From NCBI GenBank assembly GCA_040377305.1, contig JBEIPA010000024.1:1-64000 (forward strand): a DNA stretch of 64,000 nt, written 5' to 3'. The DNA comes from Flavobacteriales bacterium. GTDB lineage: Bacteria > Bacteroidota > Bacteroidia > Palsa-965. Within the stretch, counting starts at the first letter, position 1. Every line of letters begins with the position of its first letter. A program made the translations under genes and the position numbers. The notes below the pieces were generated by a model. It made no database searches. It was given only the letters and a program-made list of their open reading frames with translations, and had not been told where the DNA came from. Of the stretch, positions 15,364-54,450 are shown piece by piece.

Positions 15364-15385
15364 TTATCCGTTTGTAACCGACTAG
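15364..15385. promoter_or_regulatory. CGTTTACAAACG-family palindromic operator (1 mismatch)
   Basis: ttatccgtttgtaaccgactag, ~43 nt upstream of ATG 15428. Confidence 0.55.
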
Positions 15386-15427
15386 CGTAAATGTTTCTTC
15401 GCACATTCGTGGCATAACCAACTGACC

Positions 15428-16546
15428 ATGAAAACTAAAAAGATTATTTCGCTGATTATTACTACATTTTTCTTTTGTGGATTTGTAAGTGCGCAAGACC
15501 ATTCAAAAGACGTCAATAGTCCGGCCTTTGACACTGCTGCCTATTCGCCCACGATATTCCTGGGGCTCTTCACTGAAAACGTTAACACAACACAGATCTC
15601 CGCAAACGTTACGGAAGAAAAATTGGAATTGGCCGGAAAAATTTTCGAATCTGATTCGTCGAGATTTTTATTGGGAATGCGCTTCTCAGGTACTGCAGAA
15701 AATGGAGTAGCCTCCCTCTTGTCAGGAACAAAAGTAGTTCCAAAGGCTTCAATTGGATTAGCCGGAACCTACACGATAAGAAACTGGATAAGCACCAATT
15801 CTGCAACAACCATGAAGTACAATAGTTTGTTGAAGGCAACTGGTGTTGACCGTAAAAGACACAATAACATTTCAGTTACAATCGGATTGAAAGCAGAAGG
15901 TGCGAAATATATGTTGATTGACACGAGCTTAACTATCCGCAAAATGGTAACGAAAAAGAAGTACACAGGATGGGAACAACATGTTCAATTCAACTGGTTG
16001 ATTTACAATTACAATTCGCGGCTCTTGTGGAACCACGGTCTCAAATTCAGTTACGGTCAGATGAATAATGTCGGAGACCTGAATGAATATGCGATTTCAT
16101 CCTCAAGCAATTTTCAGGACAGCACATTCAAACAAAATTTTGATTTGAAGAAAACGGGATATTATTCGAGTGGATACATGGTACAACACTTTGGAACAGT
16201 AAGCTATGAAATGGGAATTTATCCGACGGCGTTGGACAGCAGACTGCCAGGATTTCTTATTGGAACGGAAATGAAATATTATTCGAAACAAAAAAACGAA
16301 TTCAGCGGCTATCTTGGAACCACGTTTCTGATTAGAGTTTCAACGACGCCAGATAAACCTAAACCTCCAATCTATGTTTCCGTAGTTATTCAAACTACAG
16401 ATCCTGCGAACTGGAAAGGTGAAGAAGAATTCCAATTGAAAGACTCATTCAGCGGTTTTCTACGCTTCAGCCGTCCACTCACATGGACATCTCCGGAAAA
16501 TAAGAAGTCAAAGAAGGAGCAAGAGCTACTCCGAGCGGCAAAATAA
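15428..16546 (+). CDS. Hypothetical exported / outer-membrane protein
   Basis: Signal peptide MKTKKIISLIITTFFFCGFVSA; beta-strand-rich; followed by a hairpin terminator. Confidence 0.7.
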   Translation: MKTKKIISLIITTFFFCGFVSAQDHSKDVNSPAFDTAAYSPTIFLGLFTENVNTTQISANVTEEKLELAGKIFESDSSRFLLGMRFSGTAENGVASLLSGTKVVPKASIGLAGTYTIRNWISTNSATTMKYNSLLKATGVDRKRHNNISVTIGLKAEGAKYMLIDTSLTIRKMVTKKKYTGWEQHVQFNWLIYNYNSRLLWNHGLKFSYGQMNNVGDLNEYAISSSSNFQDSTFKQNFDLKKTGYYSSGYMVQHFGTVSYEMGIYPTALDSRLPGFLIGTEMKYYSKQKNEFSGYLGTTFLIRVSTTPDKPKPPIYVSVVIQTTDPANWKGEEEFQLKDSFSGFLRFSRPLTWTSPENKKSKKEQELLRAAK

Positions 16547-16564
16547 TATCATATCGTTAAAACG

Positions 16565-16598
16565 AAGAATCGCTCTACCAAGCGATTCTTTTGTTTTT
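16565..16598 (+). terminator. Rho-independent terminator
   Basis: aagaatcgct-ctacca-agcgattctt followed by a T-tract. Confidence 0.65.
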
Positions 16599-16622
16599 CC
16601 AGTCACTCCTGTCTTCGCTTTA

Positions 16623-51280: not shown

Positions 51281-51282
51281 GC

Positions 51283-53952
51283 TTAAGGATAAATGATAAT
51301 GTTTTCATCATGCCACGAGTCCAACAGCCAATGCTGTGCTGGATTAATCATATTAATGAGTACGTACATACAGACCGGGCAGAATGAAGCGAAAAAATCT
51401 TCCGTTTTTTCAAAATCCCTGATGATCATATCTTCTATCTCAAGATCGGTCCTGAATTTCAGAGGCCTGTACTGTGTTCTCATGATGCAACTCAACGAAG
51501 CGTGATATACATGTCCATGATGCAACGAACCGCCGGAAAAGAGCGCCGTTTTTTTAGGACTATTAAAATGAGCTTCAAGCGCGGTGCGAAAGGCTGCGGT
51601 TGTATTAGGAATGCCACGCGTCATCGACTTATCTATGATTTCATGGTGAGCGGCATTGGCATTCAGTGGAAACGGATTGGCTCGTAACAACGCACGTGTA
51701 TCTTCTGAAACAAGTTCCTGTGGTACCCCGGCTAATAAGGTGGGTGCATACAAAATCATCTCCTCGTTGGCCGCAATAGTTGTGAGGCTAGCTGGCAGAA
51801 TAGTACCGGTGATAGTTATCTGAATCGGATCGGTAGCAATTGCAGGAAACACCGGATCTGTTTTGATGTTCATCTGACCTGACACCCGGTATGTGATCGT
51901 ATCAGAAGTATCTACGGGGTGTGGAGAACCCGTGCGCGTTAATGTTGCAATCGGCTCACTCCGTTTCCGTTTCCGGAGAAACACGACATCGTCTTTTGCA
52001 AACGGAACCGGTCCACCCATTATGGGCAACACTTGTGGCGGAATCAATATTTCAACTTTGTATTCTGAACCTACTTTAACTATTGATTTCACGAAACCAC
52101 ATTTCTTTATGCGGTGCCAACGCCATTTAATTTTATCAGGATCGATCATTGAAGCACCTGCGACAACTGGATCCGGAATCAACAGATCGTGTCTGGCTTG
52201 TACATTTCCATAACTGTCAAGATTGGAACGCTTACTGTCCGGATAGATCGCGTATTTCCATCCGATCAATTTTGCATCATCTATTTCCAACCCGTCAAAA
52301 CTGCTATCCGGAGGATGTTCGCCATATTCATCACCCAGGCAAAAGGAGTGGGATAACTCGTGAGTAATTGTTGCTTTTACTTCGGCATCGAATCTATTCA
52401 GATCCGCGTTGCTTTGAACGAGCGTGACTTTGGGCCCAGCTTCCGTCACCTCAAACGTTTTTACACTCTCCCGTACCAATGCGAAAAATCCAGTCCCGAT
52501 ATTCTGCACGCGCGCATTCACTCCGCCACTCAGGAAACATATCTTGTTCGAATCCGGTGCTCCAGTCTTAAAGAGTTTACCGACCTTATTTCCTGCAGCG
52601 TCCTCCAGGTGATCCAGAAATGTATCGAACTGGGCACGGCTCAGCCTCTTCTTCGAAAAGTGCATCATGCCATAGTCGCTGTCACGTTCAAATGATGTAT
52701 AATCGTTTGACAGCAATCCCATTGCCGTATCTTTTTCTTCAGGCAGAACTCTTTTCCCGGCAACTTTCCATTTTTCCAGAAAACTACCCGTGCTTGCAAT
52801 GAGATCTATCACGATTGGATCTACGGACGTGAGCGTTTTCCAATCTGCGATAATCGTCGCATCTGATTTGGTAGAGTCTTCCTCTACAGGCATACCCAAT
52901 CTGTAAAATAGATCCTGATACGTTGTTACCTCTGCTACAGCATTCAACTTCACACGGGAGACTATAGGAACAGGAATATATTTATCGCCACGTAAGCCAC
53001 GTTGCATCATAGCTTCACATCGATTGGTACCTCCATTTTCCCTCGAAGGGATAAACACCTTCCACAGATTGATTCTGTCACTCAACCATGCATAGGGCAA
53101 GCTTGTGAGACCATAAAGAGTGTGTGCATAGTCGTCGAGTGTTGCATCAAAAACATCTTTCTCTCCATCCACGAATCCATCGCATGCAAACAAAACATTC
53201 ACGCGGTCTTGTGTTGCAGAATATCCCGGAGGACTACCCACAGCTATCAATTCTGCCTTGATCGACGAATCAGTTCCCGCCAACGTCTTCTTTACGCTGA
53301 TCTCTCCCTTCGCATCTACGTTAATACCCAGTGTCGAATTCTTAATGGTAGCAGTTACCGCAAATTTTTTGTCTACCCCCGAAGATGTAGCCGTAATCTC
53401 CCCACTGGAATTGATCGAAATGTCCGAAGAAGGAACATCCTCCGCCCATGTGATTGACAGCGGAAGTGTGGTGCCATAATTTACTTTCGAGCCAAAATCT
53501 CCCCGGTAAATATTGCCTATCTCTGCAACTACATTGTCATCAAATCTCGCTCTTACAGAAAATTGCGAACCGTTCAGTCCCGGATAAACAGTTAATGTTG
53601 ATGGAGACAGCCACGCTTCAGCAATGGATTGATGCACGTGAATTCTTATTCCAGTAGGTCCTGAAGTGTCGGCGCCCACCGTTGCCGTAACATCAACTAC
53701 AAAGTTTCTCTTTTCGACTGCAGGCGCCGCCCCATCGAGTTTTAAAAGACCGGTTGAAATATTCAGTTCAATATTGTGTCCGGTGAGTTTACCACCCGCT
53801 GTTACACCACTGAATTGAGCATTGAAGAGGTACGTCGCCGTAGAATGTTCGGTCTTGTAATTAGCATCAATGAGATCCTTAAGGTTTATTGATTGTCCCC
53901 GCAATAGATGAATATCATACGGCGGGTCAAATGTAGGAGCAGCGAGAGCCAT
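51283..53952 (-). CDS. M64 (IgA peptidase)-like zinc metallopeptidase with N-terminal Ig-like domains
   Basis: VLFACDGF, THELSHSFCLGDEYGE (HExxH...DEY) and SCIMR...FCPVC; no signal peptide. Confidence 0.72.
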   Translation of the reverse strand: MALAAPTFDPPYDIHLLRGQSINLKDLIDANYKTEHSTATYLFNAQFSGVTAGGKLTGHNIELNISTGLLKLDGAAPAVEKRNFVVDVTATVGADTSGPTGIRIHVHQSIAEAWLSPSTLTVYPGLNGSQFSVRARFDDNVVAEIGNIYRGDFGSKVNYGTTLPLSITWAEDVPSSDISINSSGEITATSSGVDKKFAVTATIKNSTLGINVDAKGEISVKKTLAGTDSSIKAELIAVGSPPGYSATQDRVNVLFACDGFVDGEKDVFDATLDDYAHTLYGLTSLPYAWLSDRINLWKVFIPSRENGGTNRCEAMMQRGLRGDKYIPVPIVSRVKLNAVAEVTTYQDLFYRLGMPVEEDSTKSDATIIADWKTLTSVDPIVIDLIASTGSFLEKWKVAGKRVLPEEKDTAMGLLSNDYTSFERDSDYGMMHFSKKRLSRAQFDTFLDHLEDAAGNKVGKLFKTGAPDSNKICFLSGGVNARVQNIGTGFFALVRESVKTFEVTEAGPKVTLVQSNADLNRFDAEVKATITHELSHSFCLGDEYGEHPPDSSFDGLEIDDAKLIGWKYAIYPDSKRSNLDSYGNVQARHDLLIPDPVVAGASMIDPDKIKWRWHRIKKCGFVKSIVKVGSEYKVEILIPPQVLPIMGGPVPFAKDDVVFLRKRKRSEPIATLTRTGSPHPVDTSDTITYRVSGQMNIKTDPVFPAIATDPIQITITGTILPASLTTIAANEEMILYAPTLLAGVPQELVSEDTRALLRANPFPLNANAAHHEIIDKSMTRGIPNTTAAFRTALEAHFNSPKKTALFSGGSLHHGHVYHASLSCIMRTQYRPLKFRTDLEIEDMIIRDFEKTEDFFASFCPVCMYVLINMINPAQHWLLDSWHDENIIIYP

Positions 53953-54079
53953 ACATGGGTTGTTTTAGTTCAATTCATCCGGAATGCAGATGCGCGCAAT
54001 AAAAACAATAGTTCAATTGAAACGGGTTTGCAATTATACATGAGGCAAGTTAATTAATTCACTTAACCTTGACGTATTC

Positions 54080-54100
54080 CAGTCGTTTACAAACGACTAG
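54080..54100. promoter_or_regulatory. CGTTTACAAACG operator upstream of the giant-protein operon
   Basis: agtcgtttacaaacgact. Confidence 0.65.
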
Positions 54101-54419
54101 TTATCAACAATCCGTTTAATAATCAATTGGTGCATCCGGTCACTTGCCAAATTGTAAAACATGAAACCTGTATACAAACAAGAATAGTTCTGGGATGACA
54201 CGACAAGGCCGAAAGTGCTGCTGTTATTATTTCAAAATACCTGAAAACAATAATTTTTGCTCCTGAAAATTGTGCAGTCCAAAATATTCTTCAATGCTCG
54301 CGTACACTTCGATAGTATTCAAATGTCCGCTTCGGTTACTATCCTCTACATATACCCCTCCAAAAGTTTCGGCCATTCTCTCCTCCTCCACGAAGAAACG
54401 CCGCAAATCTCGGGTGCTC

Positions 54420-54450
54420 TATCCGTTTACAAACGTTTACAAACGGCTAT
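54420..54450. promoter_or_regulatory. Double CGTTTACAAACG operator
   Basis: tatccgtttacaaacgtttacaaacggctat, ~41 nt upstream of ATG 54491. Confidence 0.65.

Follow-up and report, generated by a model that had tools for sequence, protein, structure and literature searches.

A putative regulatory promoter element shared by defence cassettes and DNA-uptake genes in a Flavobacteriales genome, and a candidate zinc-finger regulator

Six copies of a short palindromic motif, here called the element, lie in a 64,000-nucleotide stretch of DNA from a Flavobacteriales bacterium (contig JBEIPA010000024.1; the window is this whole stretch). They stand upstream of defence and conflict cassettes and of other genes, and elsewhere in the genome the same element precedes comEC and further genes of DNA uptake and DNA processing. 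The genome of the window, G000, is a 5.18-Mb Bacteroidota genome with type IX secretion system (T9SS) domains; its genes were called with a simple caller, and their starts are approximate.

Copies of the element in the window

Each copy is listed below with the −7-like promoter box that it faces; the offset is counted from the last hexamer of the element to the start of the box.

15365..15384, + strand: one-unit element (score 31.6) facing a 372-amino-acid gene of no named family (15428-16546), outside the island; −7-like box at 15402-15409, offset 17 nt
20039..20068, no strand assigned: two-unit symmetric element between a divergent metallo-beta-lactamase (MBL)-fold gene (18051-19988, − strand) and hsdM of a type I restriction–modification (R-M)/AbiE operon; box at offset 17 on the MBL-fold side (20014-20021), only a weak box at offset 24 on the hsdM side
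30222..30253, no strand assigned: element forming a perfect 32-bp palindrome, flanked by two divergent units, the membrane gene 29252-30169 (box offset 17) and a glycosyltransferase (GT2)/radical-S-adenosylmethionine (SAM)/methyltransferase/kinase operon (box offset 16)
34218..34237, + strand: one-unit element upstream of the membrane gene 34329-35036 and the NB-ARC/TPR gene 35042-37882; box offset 16
54080..54099, − strand: one-unit element upstream of the five-gene operon 38164-53952, outside the island; box at offset 27, one helical turn further out
54420..54449, + strand: two-unit element upstream of a 234-amino-acid membrane gene (54491-55195), outside the island; box offset 16

A preliminary description, made from the letters of the window, had placed the motif at these six sites, and it stands in this respect: eight exact 12-mers occur over five loci (20043/20053, 30227/30237, 34222, 54084 and 54424/54434), and the copy at a sixth locus, 15369, has one mismatch. 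In 200 codon-block shuffles of the window, exact 12-mers averaged 0.005 with a maximum of one. The 12-mer alone is not palindromic, its two central bases differing from its own reverse complement, and the 32-bp palindrome that had been described at 30222-30253 is indeed perfect; five of the six copies are of the symmetric type. All six are intergenic, as had also been claimed, and lie about 40-150 nt from gene starts. By Pfam, the AbiEi-type DUF6088 gene that had been singled out before is the one transcription factor gene of the window.

Part of the window is a 20.6-kb island holding the type I R-M/AbiE operon, the MBL-fold gene, the GT2/radical-SAM operon and the NB-ARC gene. Its limits are marked by two features.

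17069..17431, + strand: transfer-messenger RNA (tmRNA) gene, whose 3′ end is the left island boundary
38039..38058, + strand: 20-bp copy of the tmRNA 3′ end, the right island boundary; no element present

Because the island spans the tmRNA 3′ end to 38039-38058, three copies of the element fall inside it and three outside, in agreement with the earlier statement that the motif occurs on both sides of the boundary. Within the tmRNA-bounded island (17430-38058), no integrase was identified by Pfam.

Promoter geometry, distribution and target genes

The element consists of one to about eight consecutive units of 10 bp, or sometimes 11 bp, which meet at CG steps. Long arrays consist of sense-strand direct repeats with a 10-bp period, with a palindromic core adjoining the promoter. 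The genome-wide scan that the preliminary description had proposed bore out the upstream bias and showed that the motif is not specific to the island, with about 60 intergenic sites. G000 contains 41 exact 12-mers on 18 of its 60 contigs, against two for a reversed-pattern control, and a profile scan returned 84 loci, of which 24 are weak matches within genes and 61 were treated as intergenic, counts that include the sites on which the model was trained. None of the 41 strong loci lies in coding DNA, though 89% of the genome codes; convergent gaps hold one of them (p=0.012) and divergent gaps 17 (p=0.021).

The spacing to the promoter is likewise constrained. The −7 consensus of Bacteroidota sigmaA is given as TAnnTTTG in PMC9723704, and 12 of the 73 ends of G000 elements that face a gene have such a box starting 17 nt past the last hexamer, while no box follows any of the 36 remaining ends. 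When elements in relatives were placed without −7 information, a box was found in 13 of 23, all 13 at offset 17. Housekeeping promoters of G000 (n=869) show a TTG peak at −22/−23 (41 and 34 promoters), and the element hexamer sits at −23; the last hexamer occupies the usual place of the −33 box, and the element promoters have no −33 box of their own. The motif is very probably a shared regulatory promoter element, and the copies in the window are likely this same promoter, co-opted by defence and conflict cassettes.

The genes adjoining the element in G000 include comEC, yraN, two short genes for single-stranded DNA-binding protein (ssb), radC, recJ, xseA, UvrD and PIF1 helicases, MPG and DUF2851, together with an integron-like integrase and R-M and Gabija/PARIS-like genes. 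Small genes of mobile type are also represented, namely Y1/RAYT (REP-associated tyrosine transposase, REP being a repetitive extragenic palindromic sequence), four-helix-bundle, GxxExxY, DUF559 and ORF6N genes. Four secreted-protein units carry the element as well: a 732-amino-acid protein with a TANFOR match (TIGR02542, E ~1e-5, under cut-off), followed by an 866-amino-acid protein whose homologs share the first 75%, differ in their tips and in some cases have TNT or RES domains; a 953-amino-acid protein paired with a fibronectin protein; a 1119-amino-acid T9SS protein with a downstream gene; and a 362-amino-acid protein. YraN acts in transformation according to PMC13663708, and PMC7073777 describes TANFOR proteins as polymorphic toxins. 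The DUF5689 component known from Riemerella is absent from G000. No element was found at the G000 recA, dinB, comM, comF-like, two comEA-like, both LexA-like and WYL genes, the first genes of the operons of the competence genes being covered by the genome-wide scan only.

Conservation in relatives, scored with a matrix from G000 only, follows the same genes; these kin genomes are not independent of one another. The element lies upstream of comEC in 12 of 19 genus genomes versus 0 of 7 and 0 of 30 in two outgroup sets (comEC matches lacking the N-terminus were left out, and outgroup matches upstream of comEC were dropped, since they fall in the upstream coding region). It precedes the TANFOR-like gene in 13 of 23 cases, with 0 of 460 in shuffles, and yraN in 11 of 24 besides G000, with 0 of 5 in the third genus. 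The short second ssb (ssb2) has it at 9 of 14 family loci, both third-genus genomes included, and the main ssb at 1 of 15, one ssb locus having been left out. With a profile derived from the comEC sites of the genus and from G000 sites, matches were obtained in 25 of 26 genus genomes, 2 of 2 in a second genus and 1 of 6 in the third. An unpublished genome (G012) adds one positive each to the comEC, TANFOR, yraN and profile counts, and no conclusion depends on it.

The ssb2 promoter extends this pattern well beyond the family. On taxon-unlabelled metagenome contigs of 28-46% GC, 42 of 73 ssb2 loci score at least 12 (7 of 80 with less than 200 nt upstream were left out), against 0 of 80 viral ssb loci, and a scan of a phage collection gave chance matches only. 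Anchored on the −7 box only, 45 non-redundant metagenome ssb2 promoters show CG at −23 in 38, CG at −44 in 31 and TA at −50 in 36. In the reverse direction, a model of the ssb2 promoters finds 16 G000 sites of at least 20 bits, compared with one for the reversed model, and these are the same G000 sites, including ssb2, comEC, yraN and RAYT genes. Together, ssb2, comEC, yraN and the TANFOR-like toxin system look like the conserved core of the regulon, and the defence cassettes look like recruits.

Several target loci are of interest in their own right. The split TANFOR-like carrier and polymorphic toxin-like gene (L026:51-4851; G000 C11:5048-9848) is conserved in 21 of 26 genus genomes, and a small downstream gene may encode immunity. 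Three further regions (L024:2833-7820, L027:1203-6259 and L026:5297-6385) encode conserved secreted or outer-membrane proteins of no known function behind the same promoter and are candidate components of toxin export or DNA uptake. Both G000 and G019 have the element upstream of DUF2851 (L032:51-1415, L137), which is possibly an unrecognised DNA-processing gene; atlas searches returned DUF2851 and unnamed clusters only. In several genus genomes, the second ssb occurs in tandem clusters of two to five short paralogs (L402, L403, L396).

The candidate regulator and competing explanations

In 48 of 66 metagenome loci (14 of 80 with less than 600 nt upstream were left out of this linkage count), ssb2 has as its divergent neighbour a gene for a protein of about 120 amino acids. 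Two third-genus genomes show the same pair, and so do two of the eight loci that the exact 12-mer alone had brought up, blind, in other families. Four cysteines of the protein are invariant; it matches the DUF2116 treble clef weakly, under cut-off, and has 1418 homologs, Bacteroidota wherever labelled. Its structure model, a confident one (predicted local distance difference test score 86), comprises a zinc finger, a long helix and a small alpha/beta domain; this C-terminal domain matches mostly winged-helix proteins (CooA, CRP, OmpR-type; Z 4-5, root-mean-square deviation 2-4.6, 49-75 residues). The array fills the spacer between the zinc-finger gene and ssb2, and its far core faces the zinc-finger gene in 30 of 48 loci, mostly 8 nt before a −7-like box, a position that fits autoregulation. 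The zinc-finger protein is probably the factor of this promoter. Other candidates were set aside. LexA-like S24 proteins have no element at their own genes, recA or dinB. None of 30 WYL loci carries the element, the sole G000 WYL gene lies in a TROVE locus, and PF13280 has no match in G011, G019, G023 and G003, which are 90-100% complete and all element-bearing. ORF6N, although a frequent target (10 of 30 loci), is missing from the element-rich G010 and G014. An alternative group-1 sigma factor was dropped as well: the two sigmaA paralogs of G000 (C15:38133-38996 and C58:16955-17824) share the same region 4.2, the comparison covering group-1 sigma factors.

The reading that is modestly favoured here is that the element and a predicted zinc-finger activator switch a DNA-uptake programme of competence type, from which the defence and conflict cassettes of the window have borrowed their promoter. 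The protein would bind one unit per helical turn, and the promoter-proximal unit would substitute for a −33 box; the −7 box being weak by itself, sigmaA polymerase would be recruited to it only with the help of the protein. The far end of the array, about 8 nt before the −7-like box of the zinc-finger gene, would confer autoregulation, and symmetric copies could serve two divergent promoters. Co-induction might then couple a kill-and-take-up behaviour with protection against incoming foreign DNA, and would let REP-associated mobile genes be expressed when single-stranded DNA is present; defence cassettes would carry this promoter much as R-M systems carry DdaA sites. A bolder version, offered tentatively, makes the zinc-finger/winged-helix protein a master regulator of natural competence in Bacteroidota that couples uptake to TANFOR/T9SS killing, with defence islands and RAYT, four-helix-bundle, GxxExxY, ORF6N and DUF559 genes carrying its promoter and firing on the entry of foreign single-stranded DNA. 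The idea in the preliminary description of a trans-acting regulator is backed by fixed promoter geometry and cross-genome conservation; the defence and conflict modules that it had named do not form the main part of the regulon.

Several observations weigh against the favoured reading. Outside the family, comEC lacks the element (0/30) and the most widely kept target is ssb2. The competence set is incomplete, since recA, comM, the comF-like gene and the two comEA-like genes have no element and the dprA match is ambiguous, lying inside the coding region of a divergent TonB receptor; the repair genes recJ, radC, xseA, UvrD and PIF1 helicases and MPG are also targets. The boxes in the window are weaker than elsewhere, at offsets of 16, 17 or 27, and that on the hsdM side is poor. 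As for the protein, the fold matches lie below the Z 8 mark of the tool, Foldseek returned nothing at E<=0.001, and the single zinc-finger copy of G000 has no element upstream and lies 17 kb from ssb2. The inclusion of training sites in the G000 counts belongs on the same side.

The main rival follows from these points, because ssb2 and repair genes form the widest core and several competence genes have no site. It keeps the same promoter class, and perhaps the same protein, but assigns them to a LexA-independent response to DNA damage or single-stranded DNA (like DdaA, DriD or PafBC); only this genus would have recruited comEC and the toxin operon. PIF1 follows ssb2 in 14 loci, repair, R-M and Gabija-like genes are among the targets, and DdaA itself, according to PMC12392091, controls repair and R-M genes through a site lying some 50 bp upstream of their starts. 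Yet recA, dinB and the LexA-like genes have no element, WYL genes are missing from the four element-bearing genomes named above, and comEC, yraN and the second SSB have transformation functions; this alternative is accordingly judged unlikely, if the most serious of those considered. Unlikely, too, is a different factor, such as an OmpR- or LytTR-family response regulator, or a repressor whose operator the element would be, the zinc-finger gene being merely a co-regulated neighbour. G000 encodes 8 OmpR-like and 19 LytTR-like proteins, and the long arrays with their 10-bp period resemble ArcA arrays, for which PMC3798270 gives two to five repeats at 11 bp; a site that covers −33 could keep polymerase out as well. 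However, the element is missing from all nine upstream regions checked at OmpR loci, these promoters offer a repressor no separate −33 box to act on, and the divergent layout of regulator and target is kept in 48/66 loci.

Two readings that deny the element a regulatory role fare far worse. That it is a repeat of REP/BIME (bacterial interspersed mosaic element) type, spread by RAYTs and without regulatory meaning, is highly improbable. A separate 30-bp REP forms 28 clusters in G000, one of which is no more than 120 bp away from the element at 15 of 61 sites; several Y1/RAYT genes carry the element, and REP-plus-promoter units of about 110 bp stand in tandem at three contig ends (L040, L042, L060). 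In the genome of the window, a REP sits between the comEC promoter and the comEC start; therefore, REPs either land close to these promoters or take them along as passengers. But the repeat reading explains passenger copies only: there is no REP near the window copies, orientation and spacing to −7 boxes are fixed, and retention at orthologous genes across 28-46% GC, above all at ssb2, largely refutes it. The preliminary description had named an abundant repeat without bias to gene starts as the finding that would undo it, and the near absence of strong sites from coding DNA (0/41) and convergent gaps (1/41) speaks otherwise, although some elements do adjoin the separate REP. Its own alternative, that the motif marks recombination junctions of cassettes, proved weak, and a site-specific recombination site at cassette junctions is very hard to credit. 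Symmetric copies do lie between modules in islands and in slightly lower-GC DNA (14 versus 22 sites, GC 43.0 versus 44.9%, p=0.016), and the integron-like integrase gene has an upstream copy. In G010, a different island occupies the same tmRNA, with four elements along that contig stretch, and the ortholog of 29252-30169 keeps its element beside another divergent neighbour; this fits a promoter travelling along with its gene and may suit a junction role too. The real attachment sites at the tmRNA island ends, however, have no element, the variable number of units and the one-sided −7 boxes are unlike a recombination core, and the element stays, at fixed spacing, with orthologous core genes such as comEC.

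Competence regulons are known under ComK, ComX, ComR or Sxy/TfoX. Like them, the regulon proposed here puts comEC, yraN, radC and a second SSB gene behind a common promoter signature and combines these with antibacterial weapons; unlike them, it has another motif and protein family and a Bacteroidota −7 box, and comM, comF-like, comEA-like and recA genes stay outside it. In Vibrio cholerae, competence and the type VI secretion system are described as co-controlled. DdaA, a WYL activator of Moraxellaceae, likewise has a site about 50 bp upstream of starts at ssb, repair genes and acquired R-M systems; as described in PMC12392091, that site is a single palindrome and recA is included. WYL genes do not track the present element. 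LexA-like S24 repressors, from the same phylum, have ssb, radC and recQ among their reported targets, but the two boxes reported in PMC8565304 are other sequences, and LexA-like genes, recA and dinB lack this element. Arrays of the OmpR/PhoB family, such as those of ArcA (PMC3798270), share helically phased repeats of variable number near −35 and a winged-helix fold; the candidate here differs in having a zinc finger for a receiver domain, a palindromic core and a period of mostly 10 bp. REP/BIME sequences with RAYTs are likewise intergenic and palindromic, with dozens of copies, some beside RAYT genes, but the element is upstream- and orientation-biased, fixed in promoter spacing and conserved at orthologs, and the 30-bp REP of G000 is separate.

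No account of the element or the zinc-finger protein was found in the literature, in searches made by terms other than the motif sequence and outside the promoter tables that supplement PMC9723704 and PMC8565304. A screen in Riemerella and a paper on P. gingivalis name uptake genes and, in the portions concerned with these, no regulator. Judged from sequence comparison, element and protein would thus be a new regulon and a candidate regulator family of a known general type. For competence control in Bacteroidota, this offers a concrete promoter, a candidate protein and a target list, and might make transformation inducible in a phylum that resists engineering. It also nominates conserved secreted proteins of no known function as parts of a killing or uptake machine, and would account for unrelated defence cassettes having one common promoter.

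Further observations in and around the window

Immediately upstream of the intact gene, at 16810-16930, part of the tmRNA 5′ end is duplicated, and the duplicate carries a −7-like box of its own. The operon at 30402-33891 encodes GT2, radical-SAM/SPASM (with weak pVip matches), methyltransferase, kinase and DUF1643 proteins, and the five-gene operon at 38164-53952 encodes very large proteins with DUF6603 and a weak peptidase M64 match, otherwise without a Pfam or NCBIfam match. Elsewhere in G000, the WYL regulator mentioned above stands beside genes that, by their sequence, are TROVE-like and RNA ligase/kinase-like (L062; C7:90767-99336), in what looks like an RNA-repair locus, and a RAYT gene is flanked by an array of the 30-bp REP (L021; C8:23750-24982). 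Just past the window, a LexA-like S24 gene lies near dinB (L064; C56:72016-75129), and its upstream box matches, by eye, one published Bacteroidetes LexA motif.

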